A stretch of 44,711 bases of DNA, the filler included, from Jimgerdemannia flammicorona (taxonomy: Eukaryota): NCBI GenBank assembly GCA_003990765.1. It is 2 parts of 2 records of this genome, joined end to end, with 100 filler letters (N's around TTAATTAATTAA, not from the genome) between each part and the next. Parts side by side here need not be neighbours in the genome. Positions count along the whole stretch, not along the records: positions 22,410 to 44,711 come from RBNJ01001307.1; 1 more part is not named here. One strand, given 5' to 3'. How positions within the stretch are numbered: position 1 is the stretch's first letter; the number at the start of each line of letters is the position of its first letter. Positions 13,790 to 44,492 of the stretch are shown here, piece after piece. The notes under the pieces were generated by a model. That model ran no database searches and was not told the origin of the DNA. It was given only the letters and a program-made list of their open reading frames with translations. The position numbers were made by a program, and so were the translations under genes.

Positions 13790-13840
<51 letters not shown>

Positions 13841-13843
<3 letters not shown>

Positions 13844-14010: not shown

Positions 14011-14042
<32 letters not shown>

Positions 14043-15697: not shown

Positions 15698-17465
15698 TAC
15701 CTTTCTGACACTTATCTTTCTTCAGTACCATTCAGATTATATAATCTTTGGAAAGTACTTACAACATTGTTTTTTAGAGAAAAGAGACTAGCAATATAGT
15801 GACCAACAGACAATCTGAGGTGTGTACAGGGCAGGGTGGCCTGAGTGTATTCAACTGGCAGTATGTGGAGAGAGGTCCTGGCCTGAGGGGTAGTATGAGG
15901 GGGCTGCTGGCAGGAGGATGTAAAAGAGGAGGAGGTAGTGGTGAAGGACAGAGGTCTGGGAGAGCAAGCTTTGTAGAGATAGTAAAGAGGAGACAGCAGG
16001 TATCTGGGCTGGAGAGGTGGCTGAGAAAAGGTAAGAAGATAGGGAAGATAGCAGTATATGAGGGAGTAGCCCTTGGTGGTAGGAGCAGTAGAACTGGGGA
16101 TAGAGTGGCTGAGGTGAGCATAATGACTGATGGTGATGGGACTACTAATCTGGAAAAAAATCCAGATATGACTGTTAATAGTATGGCTGAGCAGCTGGGG
16201 CTTGGAAGGCAGGGAAATTTGGCAGATAGTATTATGGGCCTGGTGGTGGCCCCATTGCTCAAAAAATCAATCTTGGTATTTATAGTTACACTGTGCTTCT
16301 GAGGCCTAGTGGTGATGGTGAAAATGGTACTAGGGCTTATCACTAAGCAGGTAGCTAGAGTAGCATCAGTAAAGTTTCTGAAGAGATTGGAGGGTATGGA
16401 GGTGGGCTTTGAGGAGAATGGACCTTTGGAGGAGGTACTGAAGGCTGGATTGATGGTTAGGGAGATGTGTGTTCCAATGGCATGGTGCCTGAGATGGGAT
16501 CCCAGAGTGGTACAACTGCTGGTGAAAGAGATGCTCATGGTGATAATAGTGGAGATAAGAAGGAGAGTTGAGGAGGTCATGGTGGAGTATGGAGAGATGG
16601 TAGATATTAGATTCAGAGTCTAGGAAGGGACCTTGCTCAGAACTGGGAATGTTGATGTAAGGATTTAGCTAGCAGAGAAGGAAGCTACCAGAAAGGCAAG
16701 GAACTAGTCTTTGGTGATGGTCTGGGGGCAATTTTATACAAGATAATAAGGGTGAAGGGGAGTGAGAAGAAGGAAGAGGACTTATTAGAAGTACTGAAAG
16801 AGCTGAGTAGTACTATAGAGCAGCAGGTGCAGGCTTAAAAGACTTTTGTAGAGTCAACATACTTAGAGGTGGTGGATGGAAAGCATATTTGAGTAGACAA
16901 GGGGCAGTGAGAAAGAGCTCAGAGATATATATAAGAGATAGAAAGAGTTACTGACTAAGCTAGAGGGTAGACCACAGAAGGATATAAGAGAAATGGTAGA
17001 GGTGGGGGGTATCAAAGTGAGTGTCTGGGCTGGTGAGAGTGGCAGGAGTACAGGGAAGGAGACAGAGAAGGACAGAGAGGAGACTGGCAATGATCTGTAT
17101 ACAGATGGTATGTTTGAGGTCTGGAAGGAGGCCTGGGAGGACTTGCCTACCCCTACTCCTCTTATTAGATGAGGTCCAGCTTCCCAAAGCAGGGTGGCAG
17201 AGGATGTGCCTATGTAGGGGACCCAGCGAGTGCAATTTAGAGTTCCAGAGGTGGTAAATAGGAGACAAGTGGTGGTGGTTGGAGAGAAGGAACTAGTGGA
17301 TGTCCCAGAGGTGTGGGATGAGTCTGTGAGTGCTGGGGCTGACACTATGATACTGGATGGTAAGAGGCTAGCAACTCCTAGAGGGAAGGAGATGGGAAAC
17401 CTACTTTGGATATATAGGATAATGAATAATCTGACAGCTGAAGAGTTGGGAGAGGTGGATCTAAG
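15698..17465 (+). mobile_element. LINE copy 2, 5' UTR and ORF1 only, cut by the gypsy B LTR
   Basis: ORF1 fragments 15799-16302, 16309-16623 and 17230-17465 homologous to the other copies; 5' UTR shares ACACT.ATCTTTC..CAGTACCATT with copy 3. Confidence 0.9.
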
Positions 17466-17871
17466 TATAATGATTATAGTTTCTAAATGAGGAAATGACT
17501 AGTTCTGGGGGTTTTAAGTAGCTTGAAGAGATACTTAAGGATTCAAGTATTCTCAAAGGATTTCTAGGAGAAAAAATATTCTGAGACTTTATTCATAAGA
17601 ACAAAGGAGATATTTATACAAGATCTGAAAGAAGAATCCAGAAGGATCTGAAAAATCAAAGAAAAATGCTAAGAGAAAAGTTCTTGGCAAAGATGACAAA
17701 TGATGACAAATAAAGTTCTACAAGTTTCCAGGACATTCAGTGACTAGCTAAATAAGTACTAGTGGATACTCAGTACCAAGAAAGAATTTCTAAGTATTCA
17801 GAAAGTACTGGAAGATTGTAGAATATTGAGGAAAGATAAAGAAAAGAAATAAACTATGCTAAAATATTACA
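17466..17871 (-). repeat. 3' LTR of B1 (about 405 bp)
   Basis: Starts TGTAATATTTTAG on the minus strand after the PPT; aligns end to end with 20020-20422. Confidence 0.92.
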
Positions 17872-18182: not shown

Positions 18183-20019
18183 TCAATGAGTTTCTTTTTG
18201 CTCAAACTCTTGAATGAGGTCTTGAGAGTTCTTGAGATTAGTGGCAGGTTTACAGGTAGCATCATATTCAGAGTAATCTATCTACTTGACTAGGTATTCT
18301 GTGCAATGGTACTAGACTTGTTTATCTAAGATTTTCTCAACTTCATACTCAATGTAGTCTTCAACTATCACTGGTGTTGATGGTGTTAGAATTCAGCCAG
18401 AATATGAAGGTAACTGGTTCCAGGTCTTGAGTTATGACAAATAGAATACTGGGTATATATGCATGGTTGTTGGCAAGTTGAGGCAGTAAGATCAGGTGGA
18501 GACTTGCTTAGTGATCTCAAAGGGTCTAAGATACTTGGGCTGGAATTTGACTGACTGGTAGTTGACTTGAGATTGAGCCTTAATGTTGTTGGCTTTAAGT
18601 AGAACCATATTACCAATGTTGTATATGATATCTTACTGCTTCTTATCTGCATACTTAGCTTGATGTTGCTGAGCCTTTTGCAGGTTCATAGTGGTGATCT
18701 TGAGAAGGAAATCCATTTTGTTAATAAGGTTCTGGGCTGTGGGAACTTGTGTGTGACTGGATTGCTGAAATGAGACTAGGCTTACAGAGGTCTTGGGGTT
18801 TTGACTATAAAGTAGCTGAAATGGAGAAAGGCCAGTTGATGATTGGATAGCATTATTATAGGTAAACTCAGTATAGATCAGATAGTAGTCCCAATTATCT
18901 TGCTTATAAGATATATAGTTTCTAAGCATTTGTTCAAGTGTTCTGTTCATTCACTTAGTCTGTCCATTAGTTTGAGAGTGGAAGGCAGTAGACATAGCAA
19001 TTTGGGTTCCAAGGGTCTTGAAGAGTGCTTGCCAGAAGTAGCTTGTGAACTTGGGGTTGTGGTCACTGATAATTACTTGGGGAAGTCCATAATGGCAGAA
19101 GATAGTCTTAAAGAAGATTCTTGCAATTTCTAGGACAGTGATATTAGTTGTGGTTAGCTCGGTGATTGTAATCTTGGTGAGACAGTCTACAAATACAACA
19201 ATAGCATCATAGCCTTTTTTGGTTCATAGAAGTTGCACAATGAAGTCCATTGTGACTTGTTTGAACTTTTTGATTGGAATTAACAAGAGTTGTAGAAGAC
19301 CAGTGAGTACTTGGTTGCTTGACTTGTTTCTTTGGCAAAGATTACAGCTTTGGACATACTTCTTGATTTTCTTGAGTATATTTGGCCAGTAGTAGTCTCA
19401 TTGGATATTCTTGATGGTCTTCTCCATTCTAAGGTAACCAGCTAGTGGGGAGTCATGATGTTCAAGAAGGATCTTATACTGTAGTTCAGAGTTGGCAGAA
19501 ATATATACTTTGTCTTGATAGTATATGAGATTGTCCTTGATGGTGTACTTTTCCTTGAATTCCTTGGTGTTCCTTTGTAGAACCAGAGAGTCTTGTTCAT
19601 ATGCCTTCTTGATCTGATTGAGGAATTCAGGTACCATGGTAACTTGTAAAATTGTGACAAGATCAGGTCTGCTTGAAAGTACATCTGGTACAACTAGAGT
19701 TTTGCCAGACTTGTAGATGATATTTGGAGTAAAGGTCTGAAGTAGTTGACTCCACTTGGCTTATTGGTGAGAAAGGGTTGGTTGAGTGTTGATATACTAA
19801 AGGGACCTGTAATCAGTGATTATCAAACTCAACTCCTTCTAGGTAGTGTCACCAAGTCTTGAGGGCATACATGATTGCCAGGAGTTCCTTTTCATGAGTA
19901 GCCAGCTTTTGTTCTGCTAGGGACAATTTTCTTGACTCAAAGGCAATAGGTCAGTATCCTTGACCATCATCTTGAAAAATGACTGCACCAATGGTAAAAT
20001 TAGATATATCTGTAGTAAC
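18183..20019 (-). pseudogene. pol: Pol fragment (RNase H, integrase, chromodomain)
   Basis: Motifs as listed for B1; many stops. Confidence 0.9.
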
Positions 20020-20422
20020 TATAATATTTTAGTATAGTTTATTTCTTTTCTTTGTCTTTCTTCAATATTCTACAACCTTCTGGTACTTTCTGAATACTTA
20101 GAAACCCTTTCTTGGTGCTGAACATCCTCTAGTACTTATTTAGTTAGTCACTGATTGTCCTGGAAACTTGTAGAACTTTATTTGTCATCATTTGTCATCT
20201 TTGCTGAGAACTTTTCTCTTGACATTTTCCTTTGATTTCTCAGATCCTTCTGGATCCTTCTTTTAGATCTTGTATAAATATCCCCTTTGTTCTCATGAAT
20301 AAAGTCTCAGAATATTTTCTCTCAGAAATCCTTCGAGGATACTTGAATCCTTAGTATCTCTTCGAGCTACTTAGGACCACCAGAATTAGTCACTTCCTCA
20401 TTTAGAAACTAGAACTGTTACA
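20020..20422 (+). repeat. 5' LTR of B2
   Basis: TATAAT (decayed TGTAAT)...GTTACA, followed by the PBS. Confidence 0.92.
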
Positions 20423-20424
20423 CT

Positions 20425-20442
20425 TGGTAGCAGTGGGTGGTT
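20425..20442 (+). other. Primer binding site, initiator tRNA-Met 3' end
   Basis: TGGTAGCAGTGGGTGGTT, 2 nt after the LTR; resembles the complement of eukaryotic tRNA-iMet 3' ends (TGGTAGCAGAGGATGGTT). Confidence 0.85.
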
Positions 20443-20489
20443 ACACCTAGCCTTATCAAGATACCTCTCAAGATATCAGTCATAATACT

Positions 20490-21521
20490 ATGGAGGACAA
20501 TGGGTGGAACCCTTCATACAGTACCTATGGTCCAGACAATGCCTTATACAATCAGTACAATTAGCAAGAAGAAGAGGAACAGCAAAACCCTACTCAGTCG
20601 AATGGAGCCATCAAGAGTCTTTTGTAGACTGCATTAGCTCAGATTGCTCAACTTCAAGAATGCATAGAAAGAAAGGAAAGCAAGGCCCCCGCTCATACCT
20701 CCACACCTCCACTGACATCAATACATCTGACAGCAGTCACTATCAAGCCTCAGAAGCCCAATACTTTTGATGGTCAAAGAGGAGGACTGTCTACTGATAC
20801 CTGGCTTTTTCAATTGGAGCAATATGGAGAACTGACCAATTTGGAAGAAGCAACACTAGTCCAATTTGCCACTACACTTCTCCAAGAGAATGCTATAATC
20901 TGATAGTGAAATCATGTCCAGAATACCAGATTCTTTGGCCAAATCAAGACCTGGGGTGAATTCTCTGATGCTATTCAAGGCCAATTCAAACCAGTCAATA
21001 GCACTAAGGCCGCATGAGACTGTTTGACAAATGTCAAACAACCCAAGTCTGTACAATCATACAATGCATAATTCCTGTCAATCCTGCTAGAATTACTACA
21101 TGTCACTGAAGACAAGAAGGTTGACAAGTACATCTGAGGCCTGAAAGGTCAAACCCGAGTTTGTGTTGAACTAGAAGAACCCAAGGACCTAGATACAGCA
21201 ATGAAAATTGCTAATAGGTTTGATATCATCACCTATGGTCACCACTTTGAACAGAAGAGACCACCTTTCAACAACAACAACCACAGAAGGGAGAAACCCA
21301 AAGTCAGAACTGTTGGACCTGCCCCCATGGACTTAGACACTATCGACAAGAACAAGAAAGGCAAACTTACACCTGAGGAAACGGAGTGCCTCAAGAAGAC
21401 TGGAGCCTGCTTCTTTTGCCATCAGCCTGGTCACATTGCAACCAAATGTCCCAAGAAAACTGCTGAACCAAAGAGGATTCTGATCCTGTCCAAACACACT
21501 CAAGGTCAACCAGTTGAATAA
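20490..21521 (+). pseudogene. gag: Gag with zinc knuckle
   Basis: ATG at 20490; KPQKPNTFDG..DTWLFQLEQY, GPAPMDLD, CFFCHQPGHIATKC (21408-21449). Confidence 0.9.
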
Positions 21522-21536
21522 GAAGTTGTACTCAAT

Positions 21537-21937
21537 TTCATGTAAGTCAACCTCAAGGCCCAGATCCCTCAAGTACAGTCAGAAGGAGCCATTGGTTTAG
21601 ACCTTCAAGCAGTACAACAAGTCATATTCTGGCATATGAAAGAAGGCTCATTCCAACTGGCCTCTCAGTCGAAATCTCCAAGGAACATTATGCAAGAATT
21701 GCACTAAGATCTGGCCTCAGTTTCAAGCACTCATTGGATGTTGGTACTGGAGTCATCGACTCTGACTTCTGAGGTAAAATGCAAGTCCTGCTAGTCAACC
21801 ACAAGAACCAACCATATACCATCAATGAAGGAGACAGAATTGCACAGCTCATTCTGGAGTGAGCTACTCTACCAGTCATCAAAGAAGTCACCAAGCTGTC
21901 TTCCACCAAGCAAGATCAGAAAGACTTTGGCAGCACT
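21537..21937 (+). pseudogene. dut: Trimeric dUTPase domain, disrupted (one frameshift)
   Basis: GAIGLDL, RIALRSGLS, GVIDSDF*G, GDRIAQLIL, KDFGST. Confidence 0.92.
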
Positions 21938-21976
21938 GATAAAGTTGTAAGTATAGCTGAGAACTGAGCCAATTCA

Positions 21977-22309
21977 ATGCTCATCTTCAAAGGTCTAGTC
22001 AAGGGACAAGAGCTAGATGTTCTCATAGACAGTAGAGCTGTTGGGAACTTCTTCAATAAGAACCTCATCAACAAGCTCAAGATTCTCACCAAACCAGCCA
22101 GCAAGAATGGTGGAGTTGTCACTACAGATGGCACCACCCTACCAATTGACTCAATTGCTGCTAAACTTCCCCTCAAGATCCAGAAGTACTGGGAATGTTT
22201 AGATTTCGAGGTAGCACCACTAGGAGACCATGACCTGATCCTAGGCAAACCCTGGCTTACATGGCACAACCCTCAGATTGATTGGACCAAGAATGAAGTC
22301 ATCTTGATT
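21977..22309 (+). pseudogene. pol: Retropepsin-like aspartic protease
   Basis: VLIDSRAVGNF (DSG mutated), DLILGKPWLTWHNPQIDW. Confidence 0.9.
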
Positions 22310-22409
22310 NNNNNNNNNNNNNNNNNNNNNNNNNNNNNNNNNNNNNNNNNNNNTTAATTAATTAANNNNNNNNNNNNNNNNNNNNNNNNNNNNNNNNNNN
22401 NNNNNNNNN
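22310..22409. other. Assembly gap with artificial TTAATTAATTAA six-frame-stop linker
   Basis: 100-nt N block with the linker at 22354-22365. Confidence 0.95.
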
Positions 22410-22499
22410 TTTTTTTTAATTGTCACTTGGACTGCCCTTTATTACCGAAGTCTATAGTATTAATATGTAATACAATGTCACTCTCCCCCTCAACCAATG

Positions 22500-25400
22500 C
22501 CCCGTGGACCCAGACCTCCCCCTTCGATCTTCCCATGCCAGAGCACCACCCAATCCCCCACTACCCAAATCCTTCCACCACTCTTCTGGGAGATGCGCTG
22601 CACCAACCCCCTGTGTCTCCCTTCACCCAGTCCCCAACCCCACCACTAGCTATTCAAAATGTCCAAAAGCAACCATTCCCAATGTGCCATCTTGTCCCCA
22701 ACCCCAACCCGACACCCTCCCTCAAAGACATGAACCCAATGTCCAGCCAACCCAATCCACATAGCCAAAGCCCACCCAAGGGTCAGCCACTCGTCCCCAA
22801 CTCCACCCACCAGTTGCCAGCAGAGCTCTCCCCATCGCCCCTCTCCCTCTCCCTCCAGAGCACACAGCCCCACCCAGCTCCCAATACCTCTCCAAAACTC
22901 TTCCAAAACCTCACATTCACCAAGCCAATGTTCAGGCATCTGAACCACGCCTCCCTCCTGGCCAACATTGAAACACTCCTTGCACTTGAATACTCCACCA
23001 TCTACCAAGTGCCCAGACCGATAGTTCAACATCACATTCCTCCACTGGACCCGCCACCATACCATCCAGAACTTGGGGGGCAGCCACTGCCTCACCCTTT
23101 TGCTCCAGAGCCAGAGTCTATTCCAGTCCCACCCCTCACCAATTCCGACCCTCTGCCAAGCTTCAGGCCACAGGTCTCCACCTAGGCCTCACAGATACTC
23201 CAGACCCTTGCCAAGCTTAAAGTCCTCCACCAGGACACCCCCCAGTAGCAACCTGTCCCACTGCCACATCTGGGGTCCCCAATCCTCCTCGGCTTCATCA
23301 CCTCGCCACCGAAGTCCAGTCTTCTTAGTGCTATCCACCACCCCCCACCAGAAGCCCGTAAACTGCATCCTCCCACTCCCCTCCATGGCCACCATCGTGA
23401 GCAGGTCACCCAAGCCACCACGTGGGGAGTGCCAAACCTCCCACAATCACTGCATGAGTGGCACCCACTCCCAACCACGAAGCTTGCTTGCTCTTCTCAA
23501 CCACCAAGCTCTAAGACATAGGAGCCACTTAGTAAAGTCCACTAAGCCCAGCCCACCTCTCTCCAAGGGCAGTGTGAGCACCTCCCAACTGACCTGGCTC
23601 TGTCTCCCTCCCCAGATCCATGACCTCGTCATCTTCAACAGCTCCTTGACCACCCAGGTTGGGAAATCCAAATGATATCCCACATACTACAGCTTCAGCA
23701 TCTAATACACATTCAGCACCATCACCCTTCCAGCTAGGGACATATGCCAGCCTCCCCAACGCAGCAGAACATTTCCCCACTCCAATAATTGATGATCCCA
23801 CCATGCCTGGGGAAGAAGAGATCCGAACACTGAGAAGTATATCCCCAAATATCGCACTGGTTCTCCAGCTGGTACCACTGTGCCAATGACCTCGCCACCA
23901 ACAATCCCAGTATCTAGCACCAGAGTCTCACACTTGTGCCAGTTCAGTTTGGCCCCAGAGCCCCTCTCATACCATTCCACAGACCTCTGTAACTCCCCCA
24001 CATCCACCAGAGAGCCCAGCCTGACCACCATGTCATCTGCAAAGGCCCCCACCTTCCAATTAACCCCTAAAATGTCCAAACCCCCAATTTGGTGCCCAAT
24101 TCTGTCCAGTAGAGGCTCCAGAGAAAGGGCATACAATATGGGTGACAAGGGGTCCCCTTGGGGCACCCCTTGTCCCAGGGGAAAGGTCACCCCCCTGTGA
24201 CCATTAATGACCAACGCTGCCTGACTGTCCTCCAAGAGGCTGAACAACGATCCTTGGAACCCTGGGGGGATACCAATCCGCTTCAGCACCCCCTCCAGCC
24301 ATATTCTCCGCACTCTGTCATAAGCCATCTCCTGGTCCAGAAACACCAACCTGCCATCAACTCCTGCTGCCCGGGTGCCTTCAATCACTCCATGAACCCA
24401 AGCCATCCCATCTCGAATCAACTGACTACCAACAAACCCACACTGCTCCACACCAAGCACCTGCTGAGCAATTCCTTGCAGCCTCATCACTAAAATCTTG
24501 GTCACCAATTTGAGGTCCATGTCGAGAAGCATAATAGGCCACCAATTCTTTCAGTCCTCTCATCTCCACTTATTCTTGTAGAGCAATGAGACCAGCCCTA
24601 AGCGCTGTCCCCCAATCCAGGCACCAGACCGCAGAACTTCATCACACATAGCAATCATCTCCTCTACTGCCTCACCAACTCCAGCCATTTTCTGCCAAAA
24701 ATCCCAGGGAAGCCCATCCTCTCCTGGGGCAGTCCCTTTGCTTGTCGAGGCCATTACTCTGCGAATTTCCTCACCACACACTGGTTCCCCCAATGCCCCA
24801 AGCCCCATCACAGGGTTCAGATGCCAATCCCCCAGCTGCCTCTCAACATCCAGAGCATCCATTCCTCCTTCCTCCTCACTCCACAAATTCTCCCACCAGT
24901 TCCTTAATAGGCCCAGAATCACTGTCGACCCCACCACCAGCTTGCTGTTCATGTCCAGAACCCCCTCCCACCTCTGCCTCATTCGCCGGGCTTGTAACAA
25001 CCTCGATAAAAACCTAGTAGGCCTCTCCCCTTCCTCCAGCCCCTGCCACCGCAAATGGGCCACCATTCCCTGCAGCTTCACCTCCTTCTCCTTCTGTAGC
25101 ACTCCTTTAAGCTCTTTGATCTCTTGTCGGATTCGCGCAATATGCCAATCAGTCACGTCCCCATCCTCCAGCACTCCTGCCCATCTCTCCATGAGTGCTG
25201 CCAGATGCCGTGAGGCCCACAGCACCCTCTGTCTCCACTGAGTACACTTCCCTTTCCCTGCTTCCCCCCAATACCTCTGGGCAGTTGCCTTTAGTCTTCT
25301 CCAATGGTCACCAATTCCCAAGCCCTGTTCCTGCCACCTACTGATATTCCCAACCACCTCCGTCTCCCAACCCTCCCACAACACTGTATTCTCCAATAAG

Positions 25401-26152
25401 GAAGAATTTAGCCACCAATGTCCAGGCCCATCCTCATTACCCCCAAACCTACCCCCTCCCAGCAACCCCCAGTGATCAGACCATGGACACCATACCACTT
25501 CCAGTGCCGACCAGACATCAGTTCCCCAACACTCCGCTGTCAGAACCCAGTCAATCCTGGAGCCCAGTCCTGCTGCCCAATGGGTGTACACCCACCAATC
25601 GGTCCAAAGGTGTCTACCTGAGTCCACTAAAGAATACAATCTCTCTATTTCCAGCCAGTCACCCAGCCCACCACTTTCGCCCCACATGCCTCTTCCACCA
25701 TCTGTTCTATCCATCTCCTTATCCCGTACCATGTTGAAGTCACCCCCCATACAATCCAGGCCAACCTCTCCCAATATACCAGCCTCTTTCAATCTGCGAA
25801 TCCAATCCACCCTCTCCCACCTTTCAGCTGGGCAATAACAAGACCCAACTGTCAATGAGCCCCATCCAGGCCTCTTCCACCTACCCCACACCACTCAAGA
25901 CCCCCAATGTCCAATGTCCACAATATCCCCCATCCCTTTCCGAATGAGAATACACACTTTCCCCCTCCAAACCACCACACTCCCCCATTCCTTAGTCCAA
26001 TCCTGTAAGTCCACATCTTCCTCATATCAGACATCCTGTAGCAAGAAGAGGTCCGCATCCAATCCCTTAAGCCATCCAAATATGTACTTCCTTCTAGCTG
26101 CCCCCCATAATCCATTAATGTTCAATGAGAATATCCTAGTTGTACTGTTCAT
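22500..26152 (-). pseudogene. LINE ORF2 (EN-RT-CCHC); 3' end approximate
   Basis: ATG at 26152 MNSTTRIFSLNINGL; GGDFN, RIDWVL, WSDH, GPGHWWLNSSLL, GERPTRF, FLDQEMAYDRV, QGDPLSP, FADD, CKEC...HWLGEC. Confidence 0.93.
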
Positions 26153-26183
26153 ATTGAAAGAATGTTGAATTGTCGACCCCAAC

Positions 26184-28111
26184 CTAGTATTCCATGCTCA
26201 TCTCATCTCCAGCTAGATCCAAGCGCCATTCCACTTCCAAGTCACCCCCCACATTAGCCTGAGCATCCAGTGCCTCCAAGATTTCCTGGCATTCCACCCC
26301 ATCCACAACCTCCATATCCAACCGGTAGTCCAAGCAGACTGCACGCCACTTCTCCAGTCCCTTCCTCGAATTCCACAAGAAAAGTGCTCTGTCACTTGCA
26401 ATCTTCTGAAGCTCCTCCTCCCACTGATCATCCACTTGATATTCAACTGACTCCAGGAGAACAGCCAGGATCTCATTCCTCATCTTCCTCAGCACCTCCT
26501 CCCCTTGTAGGATCTCCTCCCAATGCCTCTCTTCCATCACCTGGAAGTCCTCACCACCCAGCTCTTCCGCCGCTACCCCTTCCAGGGTCTTCCACATCCA
26601 CTTCTCCTCATCCACTGCCTCCACCACACCTGAGCAATATGTCCCCCATCCACCTCGGGGTCCATCAGCATGCTCCTCCTCACTGACTCATCCCACTCCT
26701 CATCTGGCACATCCAGCAGCTCCTCCTCCCCCTCCGCCCCATCCAGGACACTATACTGAGGATGCACACCCTCACCCATTTCAGCATCTACTTCCAACCC
26801 ACCTTCCTCCTCTTCCCCTACTCCAATCTGAGCCCCACTCTGGGCCATTTCACCCCCCTCAGCCCAAGCGCTCTCCTGCAACCCCACACCTCCCTCCCCT
26901 GAGCTTCCACCAGCCCTACCCCCCCCCAGCCTCACCAGCAGCTCCTTCTGTATTTTCCTCCCCTGCATCTTCTCCCAAGCCCCCTTCTCTATCTGGACCC
27001 TCTTCCCATCCACCTCCCCTACCACCATCCTGGCCTCAAACTCCTTCCAGGCCAATCTCCTCCTTGTAACCGCCCCTTCTAGATCCTCCAGCACCTCCAA
27101 CAGGTCCTCCTCTTCCTCCTGGGTCCCCTTCACCCTCGCGACTTTACACTCCACTGGTCCCCACTGCAGTGTCGCCAGCCAGTCCCTCGACTTCCCCATA
27201 TTCTCCTTCCCAAACAGCCTCACCCTGACATCAATGTCACCAGTCCTAAGTGACATGCCCTCCCAGACCTTGAACCCAACATCCACAATCTCTCCATACT
27301 CCTTGACTGCCTCCACAACCAGCTCCCTGATCCTCTCCTTCGACAAGATTGGGAGATCCAACACCATCAACTGCACCACCCAGGGGTCCCAGCACATGCA
27401 CTGGGCCATAGAGACCACAACCCCACCAACTGTCACCCCCTTCTCCATGGCTGCCAACAAGGCATCTTCCTCCTCAAACCCCACCTCAACCCCTTCCTTT
27501 CCCCTCAGAAACTTCACAGACACCACTCCCTTAGCCTCCTGCGCCACCAGCCCCAAAATCATCCTCGCCATCACCACTAAGCCCTGGAAGCACATCGTGA
27601 CTGCGAATTCCGACCTCGATTTCTTGAGTAACGGGGCTGACACCATGCCTGTCACCCCATCCGCCAGGTTCCCGGGCCTCGTGCCCACTCCCAGTCCTGA
27701 ATTGCCGATGGCCATCACATTTGGATTTTTTGCCAGATCCCCAGTCACAGCCCCATCAACCATCACATCTCCAGCCCCTACTCCGGCCCCTACCCTACCA
27801 CCAGAAGCTCCCCTGGGCACACCTCCCTGTCCTCCAGCAGCAGCCGTTGATGCCTTCCCCAGGCCCAGCCAACTATCTAGCCCAGAGGCCATCTTCCCCA
27901 TCCTGATCTTGTCAGCAAAGGTTGATCTCTCCCCTCCTCTCTGCCTCAGACTGCCCCTTCCTCCATCACCAGAGCCTCGGCTGGCCATTGAGGCCCCTGG
28001 CATCCCCAAACCATCACCCCTCCTCCCCACCTGCTGCCAGCCAAAGGCGCCATCACCCCTCTGGCCAGTACGCTCACCAGTTCGATCGTTGCCATCTATG
28101 TTGTTAGTCAT
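26184..28111 (-). pseudogene. LINE ORF1 (one frameshift near 26630)
   Basis: Track ORFs 26573-28111 and 26184-26627; Gly-rich N-terminus, RRM-like core, acidic Trp-rich C-terminus. Confidence 0.9.
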
Positions 28112-28133
28112 TGGACACCAAAAACGTTAAAAA

Positions 28134-30483: not shown

Positions 30484-31700
30484 GATAGTCAGATATTTTG
30501 AAATACTCATAAATGAAAACTATCATCAAGCCTAATAGTCAGATATAATAGAAATCTTATGTAAATAAAGAAAGAGAGAGGAAGAAGGAAAACCATCATT
30601 GAAATATAATGAAAATTGAATACTCATAAATAAAAGAAGGAGAAAGTAATGATATCATCAAGATCAATAGCTAGACAAAATAGAAATCTCATATATATAA
30701 ATGAAAGAAGAGAGAGAGAGTGGAGGAAATCCATTATAGAGACCCAATGGAATACCTATAAATAAAGAAAGGAGAGAGAGATCCCATCATCAAGGCCAAT
30801 AGATAGATATAATAAAATACTCATAAATAAAAAATGATGGAAGAAAAGAAGATAATCGTCATCAAGAAAAATAGCCAGAAATAACAGATTACTTATAAAT
30901 GAAAGAAGAAGGATGAGATCCCATCATTGAGACTAATAGTCAGAAATAATAGATATTTTATATAAATAAAAGAAGAGAGAGAGAAGAGACATCATTATGG
31001 AGATATAATGAAATATATATAAATAAAAGGAGAAGAGAGGGATTCTATCATCAAGACTGATAGTCTGATACATATAATGAAATACCAGTGAATCAAAAAG
31101 AAAGAGAGGTATGAGAGTAATCATTATCAAGGCTGATAGCTAGATATAATGAAATACTATGAATAGAAGAGAGGAGAAAGAGAGTAACTATCATCAAGAT
31201 CAATAGCCAGATATAATAGTTAACTCATGAATAACAGAAGGAGGAAGAGATCTTATTATTGAGACTGATAGTCAGCCATAATGAAAATTTCATATAAATA
31301 AAGAGAGGAGAGAGGGAGGATGTATACTATCATAGAGATATAATAGAATATATATAAATAAAGAAAGAAAGAAAGTGAAGAGTATAACCATTATAGTGGC
31401 TAATAGTCCGATATAATGGAATACTATAAATAGAAGAGAGGGATAAGAGGGTAATCATTATCAAGGACAATAGTCAGATATAATGAATAATTCATTAATG
31501 AAAGTAAGAGAAAGAGATGTTATCATTGAGGTCAATAATATTAAAAATCTCATATTAATAATAGAAGAAGAGAGAGAAGAGGAAAACTATTATGAAGATA
31601 TAATAGAATGCTCATAAATAATTAATGGAGAGAGGAATTCCTTCATTTGAGGGTAATAGTCAGATATAATGAAAATCTGTAAATATAAAGGAGGGAGAAG
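30484..31700. repeat. Degenerate tandem array, about 20 units of 50-65 bp
   Basis: Core ATCATCAAGRCTAATAGTCAGATATAATGAAATACTCATAAATAAA alternating with variable A/G-rich linkers. Confidence 0.85.
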
Positions 31701-31967
31701 GTCCTTTTATTAAAAGATAATAAAATGACAACTATCAGATATGGGTGAAAAATAGAATAAAGCTGAATCTAATAGAAAGTATAAAAGGAATAATTAAAAA
31801 GGAGACAATAACCAACCTATTTGCCAAATTTATTTATATGAGTTTATATAATATATTGGCTTCCTTAGCAATCAATAATCTCATCTTCACTGGTCTAAAG
31901 ATGGACTTCTGTACAGTTTCTCTCATTTGGACCATATTTTGACTAGGGAGACAATATAAAAGGGAAC

Positions 31968-32612
31968 ATGTGAGATATAGAAAAGTACAATTCAGATTGC
32001 CAGATCTCATCTAACTATCCAGTAAATAATATAGAATAATATATATCAGATAAATTAAATAATAAAAAAAGGTGCTATTTTAAGTAAAGTTAAATTGAAC
32101 TATGGATGAGAATTGTAGAAAAGCAGGATTCAGATAGCTGAATCCTATCTAACCATTCAGCAAATAAAATAGAATAACATATATTAGATACAGTTTCCAC
32201 TAGAGATAAATTACATAATAGATGAGAGGGGGGGTAGAATTGAATCAAATAACAGATAAGAGACTATGTGAGAATTATTGAAAATCATAATTCAGATTAC
32301 CAGATCCCATCCAACCACCCAGCAAATAAAATAAAATAACAGTAACTATTAACCTATGTATTAGATTTGTTTTTGCTAGAGATAAATTGAACAACAGAAG
32401 GGAAGAGACCTGTTACAAGTAGAATTGATTCAAATAACAGAAAAGGAGCTATGTGAGAAATGTAGAAAAGTACAATTTGAATTGCTGGATCTCATTCAAC
32501 CATCTAGCAAATAAAATAAAATATATATCAGATAAATCAAATAAAGAGAAACTGTTTCAAATAGGGTTGAATCAAACAAATGATAAGAGCTATATGAGAA
32601 TTATAGAAATAT
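31968..32612. repeat. Degenerate tandem array, 4-5 units of about 135-185 bp
   Basis: ATGTGAGAA..GTAGAAAAGTACAATTCAGATTGCCAGATC.CATCTAACCA..CAGCAAATAAAATA near 31968, 32101, 32266, 32451 and partially 32591. Confidence 0.8.
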
Positions 32613-32961: not shown

Positions 32962-34195
32962 TGTAATATAGTGGACACATAATCTTAGAAGTATAGTAGA
33001 TTCTAAGATTTTTGTGAAGAGAGAGAGAAGAGTATATAAAGAAGACTTTTTGACTGAGCTGAACTGATAGAGATTTATTCACTCTAAAATACTGAGTTAT
33101 TTATAAAGATTTGTGCACTAATTCTGCTACATAAGTGTAACTAAGAGACTTAGAGCAGAATATTCAGGACCATGGGAGCTTTGTCCTCATCATTACTGAA
33201 GGGGATGAGATCTACAAACATTTCATTGTATGTTTTGCATATGTTGCATGGGATGACATCATTACTAATGATATCATTACATTCGGTGATGGGAACAAGG
33301 AGGTCTGGGGCTGTCCCGTCTATGAGGTCCTCTTCCACAAAATAGGAAACAAATGTGGAGTCTTGGAGAGATCTAACCTGGATACTTGGACCTTAGAATA
33401 CTGAGATCAATCCTTACAGGAATTGATCTGAGTTATCCTGTAGGATGGGATGTCAGAAGTCTTCTACTTTATCACTATTGAGGGTGATAGTGGACTGGGC
33501 TTCTGTAGCCACCCTGGCTTCTAGTGCATTGATATGGCAGGCTGACAAATCTCTGAAGTCTGAGACTCTAACATACTCTAAGTTGGAGATCAACTATGGT
33601 ATATATCTGAGGATCTGATGAATCTTCTTAGCTATCCTTGTTTTACATATATTCATGGAAGTGGCATCTTGTAACTCTTGAGGGCTGGTCTGTGGGAACT
33701 CCTAGCAGAGAAAGTTTCTTATTTTGTACTCCTGCCATATTTAGAGGCATTCAGTAGTAATGGTGATCCTTGTTTCCATTTCATAGCAGTAGAGAATAAA
33801 GTGATAAGGATCCATAGTACCCAGGTTGAGGCTAAGAGTTCTTCTTGTACAGGTCCTCATAGCTCTTCTGATGTCTTGGAACATCCTTTCTTCAACTGAG
33901 ATGTCTTGGTAGTTTCTTGACCTTGAGGTTTGGCAAGCAGCAGACATTTCATTTGTGGTAAATCTTTGAGCTATTTTGGGATTGATAGGTCTTGTTGAGT
34001 TGCTGCTACTGTAGTTCCTTGATTCTTCTTTTACATTCCTCAAGATGCCTGAACTGTGGTCATGATGACTCACAGTTGGTTATCATTACTCATCTTATAG
34101 CCTGAGTCATGCTGTATAATCTTCTTATACTCTGATCTGGTGGCTTATAAGGAAAGGCTGTCTCTTGTACTGATGTCATCATTCTGAGGTCACTG

Positions 34196-34200
<5 letters not shown>
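32962..34200 (-). repeat. Putative solo LTR (family C, about 1.24 kb) containing an ORF
   Basis: Minus strand begins TATAAC (decayed TGTAAC) and ends ATTACA; TATAAATA at about 33098-33105 just after the ORF stop. Same layout as the family-A LTR. No TSD, PPT or PBS seen. Confidence 0.6.
33150..34073 (-). pseudogene. Unknown protein, apparent homolog of the family-A LTR ORF
   Basis: Track ORFs 33741-34073 and 33150-33338 are one frame with six stops all compatible with C-to-T (CAA/CAG/CGA); likely ATG at 33947. Confidence 0.75.

Positions 34201-34232
<32 letters not shown>
34201..34232. repeat. (AT)n microsatellite at the LINE copy 4 3' junction
   Basis: Direct observation. Confidence 0.95.
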
Positions 34233-34241
<9 letters not shown>

Positions 34242-34299
34242 TAGTCACTTGGACTCTGCCATTTATTACCAGTCTATTGTTAAATATACAGTTCTTCTC

Positions 34300-37200
34300 C
34301 CACTACCCAATCCCCATGTGGGAGCCACTCCCCACCCCAACCCAAGCAAAGACCACCTTCTCCCCCACCACTCATACCCTTCCCCCACTCTGCCTACAAA
34401 TTTTCTCCACCAAATGATGCCTCCGACCCCACTGCATCCCCCAACTGAGCTACCAGCCTGTCAAGGTGTCCTCCATAAGGCTATGCCACCACTGCAGCCA
34501 GACCTCCAAGCCCAGTCTCCTCCCATCTTCAAAAACAAATAATCAGTGGCTAGCCAACCCTACCCAAATGGCCAGAGCCCAGCCTAGTGTGAGCCATTCC
34601 TTTTACACCTCCCCCTACCAGTCTATCTCTCAAATCCTTCCACTGCCCCTGCATGCCTGTTCCCCTGCCCCTTACCCCCAAATGATTCCCAACAGTCTGC
34701 CAAAAGTCACTAAGTACCTCACACTCCCCTAGCCAATGTTCGGGCATCTGTACATATATAACCCCCTTCCTGTCTGACATTATAGCACTCCTCACAGTCA
34801 AAGCAACCCCCCTCAACAAGGTGACCCAAGCGGTAATTGAGCATAACATTCCTCCTCAGCATATACCACCAAGTCACCCAGTACTTTGGCGGCATCCATC
34901 TTCTCACCTCAGCACCCCATGCCCAAATACTATGCCAGTCCCACTCCTCACCAATTCCTACACCTTGCCAATCACTGGGCCACAGATCCTGGCCTGGTCC
35001 TCTCTGGCAGTCTATTCCATCACTAATGTTGAACTCAAGTAATGGGATGCCACCCAGCAGCACCTAGTCCCATCTCTACATCGCTAGGTCCCAATCCTTC
35101 TCTCCTTCATTCCTGCTAATGGATCCTGATGTGGTGCACCCCCTCTGCTATCCCCCACCAGAAGCCTTTATATCGTAATTGATTAGTGTTCTGAAGCCCA
35201 ACCAAAGATAAGATATCACTAGTTGAGCCTCTTGGTGAGGATCACCTCTCCCAAACCTTCTGCAATAGGGGAACCCAACCACCCCCTCTCAATTCCACAG
35301 CCCTCTTCAACCACCAAACCCTCAAGCAGTGTAGCCTTTTCAGATAGTCAACCAGTCCCAGTCCACAACTCACCACTGGTAAGGACAAGACCTCCCAGCT
35401 TGTCTGACTCCTACTTCCAGCCCAGATCCATCCCTTGGCAAGCTTCATCAGCCTCTTCACCACCCAGGATGGGAAATCTAGATGATACACCAGATACCAT
35501 AACTTCAGCAGTCAGTAGATGTTCAAAATTGTAACACACCCTGCCAGGGACAATTGACAGTCCCCCCAACTCTGCAGGGCCTCCCCCCAGATTCCAACCC
35601 ACTGCTCCCACCAAAGCCTGGGTAGTACTGACCCATACACTGATAGATAGATACCCAAGTACCACACTGCCCCACCAGCAGGGACGATTGTTCCAATAAC
35701 CTCTCTGCCCACCAGACTATTGCCTAACACCATTGTTTTGCACTTATACCAATTAAGTCTCACCCCAGAGTTCACCTCATACCACTCCACTGTCTCTTTA
35801 AGCTCCTCGACATCAGCAATTGATCCCAGTCCGACCACCATGTTATCTGCAAAGGCCCCTACCTTCCACCCAATGCCAAAGATGAAGAGCCCCACTATCT
35901 TCTACCTGATTCTATCCAGTAGTGGTTCCAGGGAAAGGACATACAAAATGGGGGACAATGGGTCCCCCTGGGGCACCCCCCTACCCAGGGGAAAGGCCAC
36001 CCCTCAATGTCCATTACATATGAGTGCCACCCTACTCCTTTCCAGTAGACTGACTATTGCTGACTAGAACTGGTGCGGAACCCCAGCCCTATCCAAACTT
36101 TCACCAGTCAGACTCGCCTCACCCAGTCATATGCCTTCTCCTGGTCCAAGAAGACCAGGCACCCATCCAATCCACAAGCTCATGCCCCTTCAATAACTCC
36201 ATGTACCCAGGTCATGCCATCCCTAATGCTACAAGCCCCTCAGCTCAATGCCCAAGATTTGCTGTGCCATCTTTTGTAGCCTCACAACCACTACCTTAGT
36301 AACCAACTTTCTGTCCATATCCAAGAGCATAATCGGTCTCCAGTTCTTCCAGTCCTCTTGCCTTCCTTTGTTCTTGTAGAGCAATGTCACCAACTCCAGA
36401 TCTTGTTCCCCCACCCATCTCCCTGTCTGTAGAATAAGATCACACAATGCCATCATCTCACCCAGTACTCCTAGGATCCTGACCATCTTCTTCCAGAAAT
36501 CCCAGGGCAGACCATCTTCCCCAGGTGCCGTAACTGGTGTTGTCGCGGTGAGAACCTGGTGGATCTCCTCCTCTCAGACTGGTGATACCAAGTCACTCAT
36601 CCCATCTACTTGTGGGGGTTGCAAATCTTTTAATGCATGGCCAATCACATCAGCATCTACCCCACCCTTCTCCTCACTCCACAATCCACTCCAGTGCTCC
36701 TTTGAAGATCCAAGAATATCTTGAATACCATGGACCAGGACACCATCAGAGTCGAGCACCCCCTCCCACCATTGTTGCACCCTCCTTGCCCAAAGGGCAT
36801 GAGAAACTTAGAGGGCCTCTCCCCTTCTTCCAAACCCTGCCAACGTAGCCTAGCTGCCAAGCCCTGCACCCTTGCTTCTTCCTCCTCCCACAGCACCTGT
36901 TGTAGTTCACCAACCTCCTTTTTCACCCTTATGGACCTTCAATTCTCCTCCCCCTCCAATGTCACCAGTCTCACCCAATCTCCCAAGAGCCTAGACAGTC
37001 TACTAGAAGCCCACCTCACCTTTCGCCTCCTCCATTTCCCAGCCTTCTTGCCAGTCTCACTCCAGTATGCCTTGGCCATCTCCTTCATCCTCATCTACCG
37101 AACACCAACTGGGGCACCTTCCTGCCTCCAATACTCTACCTGTAGCTCAATGTCTGCAGCCAATCCATCACACCAGATCCTATCATCTAACAAGGAGGAA

Positions 37201-37946
37201 TTGAGGCACCAATGTCCAGGCCCATCCCCACTTCCCCCAAACTGACCCTGTCTGAAAATCCCCCAATGATCTAACCAAGGGCACCATTCTACATCCAATG
37301 ACCTCCAAACATCCAAACCCCAGCAGCTGGCTGTCAGAATCCAATTAATTCTCATCCCCAAGCCTCCTGCCCAATGCATATATATCCTCCTATCCCCCCA
37401 GCACTTCCTACCCACATCCACCAGAGCACTCAGCCTTTCTACTTCCTCCCATGCCACCAGCCCTCTACTCTGACCCTCAACTCCTTGTCCTCCATCTGTT
37501 CTGTCTAACAGTACCTCTTAAACCATATTAAAGTCTCCACCTAGTACATCCATCCTGGCCTCTGCAAGTGTCCCACTTTCTTGAAGACCCTTCACCTAGT
37601 CCACATACTCACCCCATACAGCAGGGCAGTAACAAGATCCCACTGTAATTGGCTCCCATCCAGTATGTATCTACTCGCCCCAGATCAGTCTATTCCCCCA
37701 GCTCTGCATATCCCTTATCTCCCCTCTACCTTTCCATACCAGAATCCCAACCTTGCTCTTCCAAACTGCCTCACCTCCCCATTCCTTTGTCTATTCCAGT
37801 TTATCCAAATCATCTTCGCACCTGACATCCTGCAGGAGAAAGAGATCAGCCTCCAATCTCTTCAGTAAAGTAAAAATGTTCCTTCATCGAGAAGCACCCT
37901 ATAACTTATTTACGTTCAGTGAAAAAATGTTGGTTATACTATTTAT
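34300..37946 (-). pseudogene. LINE ORF2, disrupted; end approximate
   Basis: NIFSLNVN, DLFLLQDV, GPGHWCLNSSLL, NWRPIMLLDMD, FADN, CEEC...HWLGEC. Confidence 0.9.
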
Positions 37947-37978
37947 ATTGAAGTATAGTGTTTTTATCCAGTCCATCC

Positions 37979-39992
37979 CTACTGCTCCAAGTTCATCTCT
38001 TCCTACACCAAGTCCAGATTATGTTCTGCAGTCACTGCCTCCTCTTCAGCTCTCTGAGCCTCCAATCCAGCCAACAGCTCATTCATCTCTCCATCTGTAT
38101 TCTCCTCAGTATTTCAGGCAGGCCTCCTGCCAGAGCTACAACCCATATCACTTGGCCCAACAGTACTTGGCCCTCTCACCAGCAACCCCTGCTAGTTTGG
38201 CCTCTCACTCCTTATCCGCCTCATACCCTTCCTCCTCCAGATATACTGCAAGGATCTCTGCCTTCAATGCCAACTCCACACCATCTCTCTGCAATATCCA
38301 TGCCCAATGATCATCACTCATTACCCTCAAGTCCACCTCTCTGAGCTCTTCAGCTGCCAGGTTATTCATCATCCTACACATCCAAAGTAGATTTCCCACC
38401 TCCTTCCCTCCCAGGGTCACTGGTCTTCCACCATCCAACATTGTGGTATCAGCTCCAGCACTTGCAGCCTCATCCCACACCTCTGGGACATCCACCAATT
38501 CCTCCTCTCCAACCACTACCACCTGTCCCCCATTTGCCACCTCAGGCATGCCAAATTGCACTTGCTGGGCCCCCTTCATTGGCACATCCTCTTCTGCCCT
38601 ACTCTGGTAAGCTGGTCCTCATCTGATGAGAGGAGTAGAGGTAGGCGATCCCTCCCAGTCCTCCTCCCAGACCTCAAACATACCATTAGCATACAGGTCA
38701 CCACCAGCTGCTTTCCTGTCCTCCTCTGTTCCTTTCCCTGTAGTCCCACCCTTCTTGCCAGCCCAGACACTCACCTCAGCCCCCCCTGGTACTACCATTC
38801 CATCTGCCTCCTTTAGCTATTGACTCTCCATCTTAGCCAGTAACTCCTTCTAACGTTTACAGTCCTGAGCTTTTTCCCATTGCCCCTTGTCTACTCTGAT
38901 CCTCTTCCTATTCATCACCTCCAAGTGTGTCAACTCTTCAAAAGACCTCCAAGCCTTTGCCCACCACTCCACTGCTCCACTCAGCTCTTCCAGTGCCTCC
39001 AGCAAGTTCTCTTCCTCCTCCTCGCTCCCCTTCACCCTTGTCACCTTGCATAAGATTGCCCCCCAGACCATCACTGAAGGCCAGTCTCTTGTCTTCCCTG
39101 TAGCTTCTTTCTCTGCCAGCCAAATCTGTATATCCACATTCTCAGTCCTGAGTGAGGTCTCTTCCCAGACCCTGAACCCGATATCCACTACCTCACCATA
39201 CTCTGCAATGATCTCCTCGACTCTCCTTCTCATCTCCAATGCTGTCACCATGGGCACTCCTTTCACCAGCAGTTGGACCACCCTGGGGTCCCATTTCAGA
39301 CAGTGTGTCATTGGGACACACACCTCCCCAATAATCAATCCAACCTTCAGCACTTCCTCCAGGGGCTCAGCCTCTTCAAAACCCACCTCCACTCCCTCCA
39401 ATCCCTTCAGGAACTTCATGGATACTGCTCCAGCCACCTGCTTAGTAATAAGCCCCAGCACCATTTTTGCCATCACCGCCAGTCCCTGGAAGCACAACAT
39501 CACTGCAAATACCGAGATTGATTTCTTGAGTAATGGTGCCACTGCCAGGCCCATCACACCATCTGCCAAATCTCCCTGCCTTCTAAGCCTCAATTGCTCA
39601 GCTGTACCATCAGTCATCACATCTGGATTTTTTTCCAGATTGGCAGTTCTGTCACCATCAGCCATCCACCCCCCCTAGCCACTACTCCCCCAGCTCCACT
39701 GCCCTCACCCCCAAGCACTACTCCTCCACGAACTGTCATTGTCTCCATCTCCTTGCCTTTCCTCAGCCAACCCTCCAGCCCTGTCATCTGCTGCCTCCCC
39801 TTCACCATCTCTGTGAAGCTCACCCTCCCAGACCCCTGTCCTCCACTGCCGCCTCCACCTCCTCCTCATCCTCCTGCCAACAGCCCTCTCATACCCCCCC
39901 CCCAGGCCAGGACCTCTCCCCACCTACTACCAGTCGAACACACTAGGGCCACCCTGCCCAGTATGCACTCTAGAATACTTGTTGTTTGCCAT
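37979..39992 (-). pseudogene. LINE ORF1, disrupted
   Basis: Track ORFs 38850-39665 and 38205-38585, homologous to the other copies. Confidence 0.88.
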
Positions 39993-40074
39993 TTCCTTAT
40001 TACCTTTCTCCAATAAATGACTTGAGAGAGTGTTGTAAAGTATGTGTAATGTAAATATTAGCTGAGAAAGGTGA

Positions 40075-43790: not shown

Positions 43791-44085
43791 ATTGTCAGTA
43801 CATCATTATAGCAAACATCAGCTTGGCAAACATCAGCTTGGCAAACATCATTACAGAGAATAAATGTAATATACCAAAAGCAATATACCAAAAGCAGATA
43901 CTAAAAGCAGCAAGGCAAGGTGAGGCAAGGTGAGGCAGATTGGAGAATACACATAAAGCACCTTAGATAGAGAGTGCAGATGGCCTTTTCAAGTGGCAAG
44001 ACATGTCATATTGGGTAGTCAGAATAGAGTATAGATGGCCTTTTCAAACAGTGAGGCATGTGAAAGATGAGCTGTAAGAAATAGA

Positions 44086-44492
44086 GAAGTGAAGTGGAGT
44101 AAGTGAGGGAAGTGAAGTGGAGTGAGTGAGGGAAGTGAAGTGGAGTGAGTGATGGAATGAAAGTGGAGCAAGTAAGGGAATGAAAGTGGAATGAGTGAGG
44201 GAATGAAAGCAGAGTGAGTGAGGGAATAAAAGCAGAGCAAGTGAGGGAATGAAAGCAGAGCAAGTGAGGGAATGAAAGTAGAGCAAGTAAGGAAATAAAA
44301 GCAGTATGAGTGAGGGGAATGAAAGTAGAGCAAGTGAGGGAAATGAAAGTAGAGCAAGTGAGGGAATGAAAGTGGAGCAAGTGAGAAAATGAAAGTAGAG
44401 TGAGTGAGGGAATAAAAGCAGAGTGAGTGATGGAATGAAAGCATTGTGAGTGAGGGAATAAAGCAGAGCAAGTGAGGGAATAAAGTAGACCA
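44086..44492. repeat. 23-bp purine-rich minisatellite, about 17 copies
   Basis: Unit GAGCAAGTGAGGGAATGAAAG(C/T)A. Confidence 0.92.

Follow-up and report, generated by a model that had tools for sequence, protein, structure and literature searches.

In complex retroviruses, accessory genes overlap or lie in the U3 part of the long terminal repeat (LTR), as is the case for sag of mouse mammary tumour virus, nef of lentiviruses and the transactivator of foamy viruses, which has an internal promoter; such U3 genes use either their own promoter or a spliced message, and some of them transactivate the LTR. Extra genes in LTR retrotransposons have been described chiefly in plants and insects and, to our knowledge, almost none of them has an assigned function. 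In plants, additional open reading frames (ORFs) are found between pol and the 3' LTR, and in the part of the source used here the sense ones (aORF-3S) resemble env and have transmembrane segments, Boty, an antisense case, being the only one cited from fungi (PMC7264820). The rice elements Retrosat2, RIRE3 and RIRE8 are described, again in the part used, as carrying ORF0, an orphan and fast-evolving ORF upstream of gag-pol (PMC3485330). By searching titles and abstracts of the open-access literature, we found no ORF family inside the LTRs of fungal or other chromoviruses. Here, we analysed a window of 44,711 nucleotides (nt) from Jimgerdemannia flammicorona (assembly GCA_003990765.1; parts of two records joined by 100 filler letters, positions 22,410 to 44,711 coming from RBNJ01001307.1), in which a 1,239-bp island on the minus strand, unit B (32962-34200), carries a decayed ORF. 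A sequence-only reading had proposed that unit B and a different LTR-like unit of the same window, family A, encode homologous accessory proteins. The reading that we slightly favour is that unit B is the dead remnant of a gypsy/chromovirus-type LTR retrotransposon, most likely a solo LTR with an accessory gene in its U3 part, and that this gene belongs to a rare family and is homologous to the family-A gene.

Unit B is distinguished by a G+C content of 39% within DNA of 22-26% G+C, and neither blastn nor tblastx (E ≤ 1e-3) recovered a second copy of it in the window. By reading its minus strand through from 34079 to 33146, we crossed 7 stops and zero frameshifts. Within this frame lies an ORF of 265 codons plus stop (33150-33947, with the ATG at 33947-33945 and the TAA at 33152-33150), which is interrupted by six internal stops (TAA, TAG, TAG, TGA, TAA and TAA), compared with 11-26 stops in the other five frames and a mean of 15.4 in shuffled sequences, only 7 of 1000 of which contained six or fewer. 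Thus, the repaired minus-strand ORF drawn by the sequence-only reading is present as a single frame needing no frameshift. As for the peptides quoted with it, MFQDIRRAM could be located at 33858-33884, SLNLGTMDPYHFI at 33795-33833 and the family-A ones at 6362-6718 (plus strand), whereas two repaired strings are not literal since they span stops. The first part of the ORF (33495-33947, minus strand) encodes a predicted helical N-terminal domain of about 150 residues, which is the part common with the family-A ORF in the profile alignment. The acidic C-terminal half (33153-33494, minus strand) contains a conserved WxPILQDNPDQ..FxGP block followed by a disordered acidic tail ending in LNILL, for which the predicted local distance difference test score (pLDDT) falls below 50.

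A profile made from relatives outside the window matches the unit B ORF at 319.6 bits over 33153-33929. All six internal stops are a single C>T or G>A step away from a codon (Q, W or R) that is kept in intact relatives, and the observed/expected ratio of CpG is 0.04 in unit B versus 0.50 in L001, an intact copy from elsewhere. Given that the stops are single transitions, that CpG is depleted to this extent and that intact relatives exist elsewhere, unit B holds a real ORF that is now an old deaminated pseudogene of a gene intact elsewhere. CpG is nearly lacking in all repeats of the window (observed/expected 0.0-0.36, with an excess of TpG/CpA), consistent with repeats being heavily methylated at cytosines in the source organism.

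The family-A counterpart was found in two copies. In A1, an ORF of 365 codons with 4 internal TGA stops (6338-7435, plus strand) lies about 500 nt 3' of the stop of a chromodomain pol (~5837), on the same strand; A2 (13840-15632, minus strand) is an inverted second copy of the unit, 79% identical, more decayed and with two frameshifts in the N-domain. The A and B proteins had been aligned colinearly by eye, and a score within shuffled controls had been named beforehand as grounds for giving up their relationship. The direct pairwise comparison returned exactly that, with a Smith-Waterman score of 39.0 versus 35.1±5.4 for shuffles and 108 of 500 shuffles reaching it. The same alignment was, nevertheless, recovered through relatives: we built a profile hidden Markov model from 10 outside proteins, excluding the window sequences, and scanned it over the six read-through frames. 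In the whole window, A1 (6359-6730) came second to unit B itself with 21.2 bits, the next match having 5.4. When isolated, the A1 peptide scored 28.3-31.5 bits; none of 1000 shuffles exceeded 7.8, and the reversed peptide came to about -1. When 1182 real chunks of 150 residues were scored together with their reversed versions, that of A1 was the top non-self match with all three profile variants (33.0, 31.5 and 19.1 bits), the best unrelated chunk of each profile scoring 7.7, 15.0 and 6.8 bits. The by-eye alignment hence failed as a pairwise result and stood as a profile result, and the search with the profile of outside relatives, in which A1 is the best non-self match of the six-frame window (21-33 bits versus 5-15 for the next), supports it. 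The colinear alignment of about 125 residues is identical from HMMER, hhalign, BLASTP and MAFFT, and BLASTP of the distant relative P0015 against A1 gave an E of 0.002. From these comparisons, we consider it very probable that the N-terminal 125 or so residues of the A and B ORFs are homologous.

The two C-terminal halves do not align. They are both acidic, as had been noticed earlier, with a net charge of -16 in B and -33 in A and an isoelectric point (pI) of 4.1-4.2; values in this range (net -16 to -33, pI 4.1-4.2) apply to 8 of the 9 proteins examined, P0015 being the exception with -5. At the nucleotide level, the two units show no similarity, again as claimed (best local score 28 versus 25.0±2.5 for shuffles, 24 of 200 reaching 28, and tblastx in agreement); one 29-base DNA match between the start-codon region of B and A1 6662-6691 (blastn E 0.027) was put down to chance. 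Since the A ORF has the N-terminal domain of the B family, the family would predate the split of the A and B LTR lineages, and as it links two lineages without remaining DNA similarity, it appears to be old and kept.

Outside the window, the family is small. A word-indexed search returned four relatives of unit B among 268 candidates (57-69% identity, E 1e-45 to 2e-98), all with intact ORFs of 174-271 residues on contigs of 720-2,375 bases. By an exhaustive profile search of 1,835,955,588 representatives, we found 6 clusters at E ≤ 1e-3, making up a close group, two members at mid-distance (P0012 and P0013) and two distant ones (P0014, 3.8e-12, and P0015, 7.2e-4); none of these matches is fused to pol. 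When P0015 was used as a bridge, it recovered only itself among 281 candidates. A search with the family-A protein gave one match among 485 candidates, which lacks the N-domain. Intact ORFs of 247-342 residues are present in four diverged lineages, in a database that takes in called ORFs only. The sequence-only reading had deduced long-term selection from conservation across LTR families; that conservation is unsupported pairwise and holds at the profile level for the shared N-domain, and the intactness of diverged relatives elsewhere speaks for a genuine protein family that is under constraint and associated with LTR retrotransposons. The annotation of the 7 cluster members listed gives nothing beyond "hypothetical protein". 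Pfam returned no family at E ≤ 1 for 8 intact or read-through proteins and none in the six frames of the L001 flanks, and a sequence profile search of the PDB gave no match at E ≤ 10. In the ESM Atlas, whose own models have a pLDDT of 0.35 and 0.39, the top scores for P0004 did not exceed 0.83, which is chance level, and P0007 had no usable match. The family is thus rare, unnamed and without a Pfam, PDB or fold match. The two window genes appear distantly but detectably related and would define a rare family of transposon accessory proteins, accessory ORFs in LTR elements being already known as a kind.

The DNA context of the outside gene comes from one contig. In a first metagenome scan, none of 229 pattern matches was confirmed, and no viral contig was found either for unit B (45 pattern matches) or for A (1 match). 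A second metagenome scan yielded the 1,535-base contig L001, the sole outside DNA copy of the gene, with an intact ORF of 291 codons and no pol within its 1,535 bases. It also contains a 28-33-base repeat (GTCAGGCGGAAC...CAGAACA) at 170-202 and 1481-1513, that is 5' of the ORF and at the putative LTR start, whose score was reached by 0 of 300 shuffles; it may be a shared control element.

To place the ORF relative to an LTR, we used for comparison the bona fide LTR of another element of the window, family C. This LTR is 403 bp long (20020-20422, plus strand) and ends in ...ACTGTTACA, followed by TGGTAGCAG as primer-binding site, and at a family-C junction on the minus strand (17884-17864) TGTAATAT comes after the polypurine tract AAAGAGGGGGAGA. 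The terminus of unit B at 32962-32969 (minus strand) is ...ATATTACA, which on the plus strand reads TGTAATAT, the first 8 bases of the family-C LTR. At the other end, CTGTTATA (34193-34200) compares with CTGTTACA in family C, but its TA bases blend into a (TA)n stretch so that about 4 bases are informative. Hence, of the TG...CA termini attributed to unit B, the TG/CA end at 32962 is present, whereas the other end is TA and merges into the (TA)n microsatellite. The flanks contain neither a polypurine tract nor a primer-binding site, as expected of a solo LTR. Downstream of the ORF, on the minus strand, we read from the sequence TATAAATA (33105-33098), AATAAA (33079-33074) and TATATAC (33038-33032), so that the TATA box and polyadenylation signal looked for in the U3 and R parts of an LTR are present in unit B, as sequence motifs only. 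A by-eye likeness between the TATA regions of A, B and C was not supported by any statistic. Taken as a whole, unit B probably represents either a solo LTR or what is left of the 3' end of an LTR retrotransposon.

In family A, AAGAAGGGAAGAG, then T, then TGTAAG (6036-6055, plus strand) marks a putative LTR start about 200 nt after the pol stop. By counting the motif of at least 9 purines, 0-2 bases and TGTAA, we found five occurrences in the window versus a shuffle mean of 1.29 (maximum 4 in 200): the family-C junction, A1 (6036-6054), A2 (15511-15493), one site in pol (3176-3196) and one in a G-rich long interspersed nuclear element (LINE). The pol site, AAAAAAGGAGGAGA, CC and TGTAA, lies on the plus strand between the protease and the reverse transcriptase of family A and may be a central polypurine tract. 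In A, the motif precedes the ATG of the ORF by 288 nt, and unit B starts 253 nt 5' of its own ATG. The sole purine run of at least 9 between the A pol stop and the TATA box is the one upstream of the ORF and followed by TGTAA; 3' of the ORF, no run of at least 9 was found in A1 before 7937 or in A2, and none of at least 7 in B. As transitions cannot break a purine run, the missing runs 3' of the A and B ORFs are not explained by the kind of decay seen here. The sole upstream tract, together with this resistance of purine runs to transitions, points towards an A LTR with its start at 6050 and the ORF within it. We also considered a small LTR-ORF-LTR element, which was excluded: the regions upstream and downstream of the ORF are unrelated (209 of 300 shuffles for A1 and 234 of 300 for B reach the score) and L001 shows one 28-base repeat only. 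Comparisons of non-coding DNA of L001 with A1, B and C, and of B with A1, gave no similarity above shuffles.

For the ORF of unit B to lie inside an LTR seems to us modestly favoured, and several observations weigh against it or against the wider reading. Unit B has a single clean terminus and is alone of its kind in the window. A target-site duplication of 4-6 bp is lacking, its flanks being TATAT and CTATG in the orientation of the ORF, although the (TA)n stretch and a LINE insertion may have erased it. In L001, the polypurine tract and TGTAA come after the ORF and not before it: the ORF stop is directly followed by AAGGAGGGAGGA (a 12-base purine run), T and TGTAATAAG, resembling the family-C succession of AAAGAGGGGGAGA and TGTAATAT, and the ORF thus appears to occupy the classical place of accessory ORFs, immediately 5' of the polypurine tract and 3' LTR. 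The gene could, in all lineages, be an ordinary additional ORF between pol and a short 3' LTR; unit B would then not be an LTR as a whole but the 5'-truncated 3' end of an element, made up of about 250 nt, the ORF and an LTR of some 180 nt (33140-32962). Such truncated elements are common in the window, and in B as in A the TATA and AATAAA boxes are all located 3' of the ORF. However, the purine run that this arrangement calls for after the ORF is absent from B and from A1 up to 7937, both A copies carry the polypurine tract with TGTAA upstream of the ORF, and random truncation would rarely place the edge of B at a distance from the ATG so close to that of A. Also, the DNA beyond the abutting LINE is A+T-rich and non-coding, and is not pol. 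We therefore hold this arrangement to be somewhat unlikely. Were unit B instead a pseudogene, with promoter, ORF and 3' untranslated region, that derives from a host gene in many copies and is unrelated to retrotransposons, one would understand why L001 shows TATAAAAG about 80 nt 5' of the ATG and no pol, why none of the matches is fused to pol, and why unit B is found on its own, with a satellite on one side and a LINE on the other. This is very improbable given that in two copies the A homologue closely follows a chromovirus pol and a polypurine tract, that L001 has a polypurine tract and TGTAA after its ORF, and that unit B has an LTR-type terminus; moreover, the contigs are short (720-2,375 bases), so the absence of pol from them weighs little. 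A sense ORF 3' of pol within an element is seen in A1, and is extended to unit B by homology only.

The same caution applies to the relationship between A and B, which could be due to chance or convergence of helical proteins of similar composition, the two genes being unrelated lineage-specific inventions. Besides the pairwise score, hhalign of A against B gave an E of 0.17 with thin profiles and 0.016 with a wider B alignment, with probabilities of 0.4% and 2.8%. The signal hinges on distant family members, since the close B group alone scores A1 at 3.8-6.5 bits versus a shuffle maximum of 4.2; without P0015, A1 scores 16.5-19.1 bits and, without P0014 as well, 16.6-19.5. With one of the three profiles, an unrelated chunk (4726-5175) reaches 15.0 bits. 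In addition, A2 is missed by the B-family profile, with -1.1 bits, or -1.2 when bridged by X at the frameshifts, the latter being reached by 138 of 1000 shuffles. Against these points stand the 28-33 bits of A1 compared with at most 8.7 for shuffles and 7.0-7.4 for the best reversed chunks, its rank as top non-self match with every profile variant, and the agreement of four programs on one colinear stretch. An origin by chance or convergence is accordingly, in our view, quite unlikely.

We then looked at the DNA upstream of the ORFs for control motifs. Unit B has two TGASTCA sites (34066-34072 and 34103-34109), which precede the ATG by about 125 and 162 nt, and A1 has a pair at 6163 and 6194, 144 and 175 nt upstream. 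The TGASTCA sites reported for both units were thus confirmed as pairs 31-37 nt apart, located 125-175 nt upstream of the ATG in A1 and B. Of the 12 sites of the window, 8 fall within 11% of its length, namely within units A1, A2 and B. Counted over the whole window, the motif is however not enriched (12 sites versus 10.4 expected, with 32 of 100 shuffles reaching 12), another point to be set against our reading. TATA-like boxes also occur upstream of the ORF in B and L001. Because of these boxes and of the paired TGASTCA sites, the sequence suggests that the gene has its own promoter.

Structure prediction gave a fold without a convincing neighbour. AlphaFold modelled the whole of P0004 with a pLDDT of 56.9, as a helical core with a disordered tail, and the L001 N-domain alone, from 12 aligned sequences, with a pLDDT of 83.0 and a predicted template modelling score (pTM) of 0.75, as seven helices. 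By using Foldseek against the PDB, we found no match at E ≤ 0.001, the best E being 1.7 for the full model and 1.0 for the N-domain. With VIA, 0 of 48,161 chains reached Z ≥ 5, the best Z being 4.2 for the full model and 4.5 for the N-domain, so that no fold match rises above noise, which also counts against the wider reading. The best VIA match is a SopB-DNA complex (Z 4.5, root-mean-square deviation 4.2, 77 residues aligned), to be taken as a fold lead only, as it lies below the noise guide of Z 8-13 for helical models. Among the 50 VIA rows listed, 8 are DNA-binding domains of ParB, SopB, KorB, VirB or Spo0J (model residues ~71-157, 73-79 aligned, deviation ~4.2-4.6), and several others are sigma region 4 or other helix-turn-helix proteins. 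We detected no transmembrane segment in 9 proteins, their highest 19-residue Kyte-Doolittle means being 0.55-1.14. The N-domain is near-neutral to mildly basic and the tail ends in a conserved acidic-hydrophobic motif. On the basis of a helical domain of such charge joined to an acidic disordered tail, we tentatively propose that the protein may have a regulatory role, perhaps in transactivating the element; alternatively, it may suppress host silencing or be a chaperone associated with particles.

Under the slightly favoured reading of unit B as a solo LTR from a gypsy/chromovirus-type element, the accessory gene would be carried in the U3 part, and its product would consist of the helical N-terminal domain (about 150 residues), a short conserved block in the middle and the disordered, strongly acidic tail. 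Paired TGASTCA sites and TATA-like boxes would form an upstream control region of its own. Each new LTR would bring a copy of the gene with it, solo LTRs would retain it, and its product may act as a regulator that serves expression of the element, binding DNA or protein through its helical domain and having an activation-like tail. The copy in the window is inactive, having decayed through C>T/G>A changes of the type usual in methylated repeats. The polypurine tract used by the A and B lineages may have shifted upstream, drawing the ORF into U3. A bolder version, in which the U3 of a chromovirus-like LTR carries a transcription-factor-like gene that encodes a helical DNA-binding domain together with an acidic activation tail and has a promoter of basic leucine zipper (bZIP) sites, the element brings its own transactivator and L001 shows the state before the shift, strikes us as unlikely; were it true, every LTR, including the solo LTRs left by recombination, would be a self-contained gene. 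If the gene lies before the LTR, it would be one more orphan accessory ORF, still useful as an annotation marker and as a candidate transposon-encoded regulator.

The rest of the window consists largely of other repeats. A Pfam scan of 75 six-frame ORFs shows that a gypsy/chromovirus element on the plus strand begins before base 1; on this family-A side, the pol domains are the protease (2264-3193), the reverse transcriptase (3320), RNase H (3890-4432) and the chromodomain (5595-5834). In A2, but not in A1, we observed an insertion of about 150 bases (~14014-14165) with a 25-base poly(A) and flanked by the direct repeat ATAGTTAGATT, which looks like a small SINE-like retroposon (short interspersed nuclear element). 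A 34-base inverted repeat, 94% identical (8080-8113, plus strand, and 15665-15697, minus strand), brackets the first LINE copy and the inverted A2 and hints at inversion or recombination between the two A copies; an inverted repeat was also sought at the tail-to-tail A1/A2 junction at the LINE, and none was found. Family C has its integrase at 18389-19760 (minus strand) and its gag, dUTPase and protease at 20431-22354 (plus strand), the dUTPase domain (21518-21769, Pfam E 1.4e-8) being located between the gypsy gag and the protease. Two runs of N (22310-22353 and 22366-22409) separate this protease from a LINE copy, and the sequence order there is not assured.

The LINE family, with an extreme G/C strand skew, is present as three copies and one fragment: 8113-13839 (plus strand), 15781-17473 (plus strand, the fragment), 22410-28130 and 34240-40070 (both minus strand). 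It has 50-58% G+C and a GC skew of about ±0.45, whereas the genome is otherwise A+T-rich, and its G-rich strand carries long ORFs, the opposite strand being likewise open over long stretches. Unit B is bordered on one side by an A+T-rich satellite (30520-32600) and on the other by the 3' A9(TA)n tail of the minus-strand LINE that extends from 34240 to about 40070; the (TA)n and A9 at 34201-34240 represent its tail and target-site duplication, with (TA)n found at both ends of this LINE. The satellite side comprises tandem repeats at 30520-31700 and 31934-32600, with units of about 130-185 bases that are 65-80% identical. Farther away, a tandem array with a 23-base period (44064-44485) was reported with 12 overlapping copies.

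Compared with described systems, the N-domain recalls helix-turn-helix domains of the ParB/SopB/KorB/VirB type through the weak fold lead of Z 4.5, but differs from them in having no Pfam match at E ≤ 1, no PDB sequence match at E ≤ 10 and no Foldseek match. Like the aORF-3S as presented in the part of the source used here (PMC7264820), the gene is an extra sense ORF 3' of pol that is lineage-restricted, without an assigned function and apparently kept across related families, the A1 ORF coming after pol on the same strand and the L001 ORF ending at the polypurine tract. In contrast to the env-like aORF-3S of that part (PMC7264820), no 19-residue window here exceeds a Kyte-Doolittle mean of 1.14 and the tail is acidic, and the A and B ORFs seem to be placed 3' of the polypurine tract and hence within U3. 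With rice ORF0, as far as the part of its description used here extends (PMC3485330), it shares being an orphan accessory ORF of gypsy elements with long LTRs that evolves faster than pol and has low identity between families; unlike ORF0, which is upstream of gag-pol in the internal region, the window genes are near or in the 3' LTR. With respect to complex retroviruses, there is no sequence or fold relation, and the host and the type of element, a chromovirus-like retrotransposon, differ; the likeness would be in the place of the gene, at the 3' end or in U3. If the gene does lie in U3, solo LTRs would carry a gene and the element, like complex retroviruses, would encode its own regulators.

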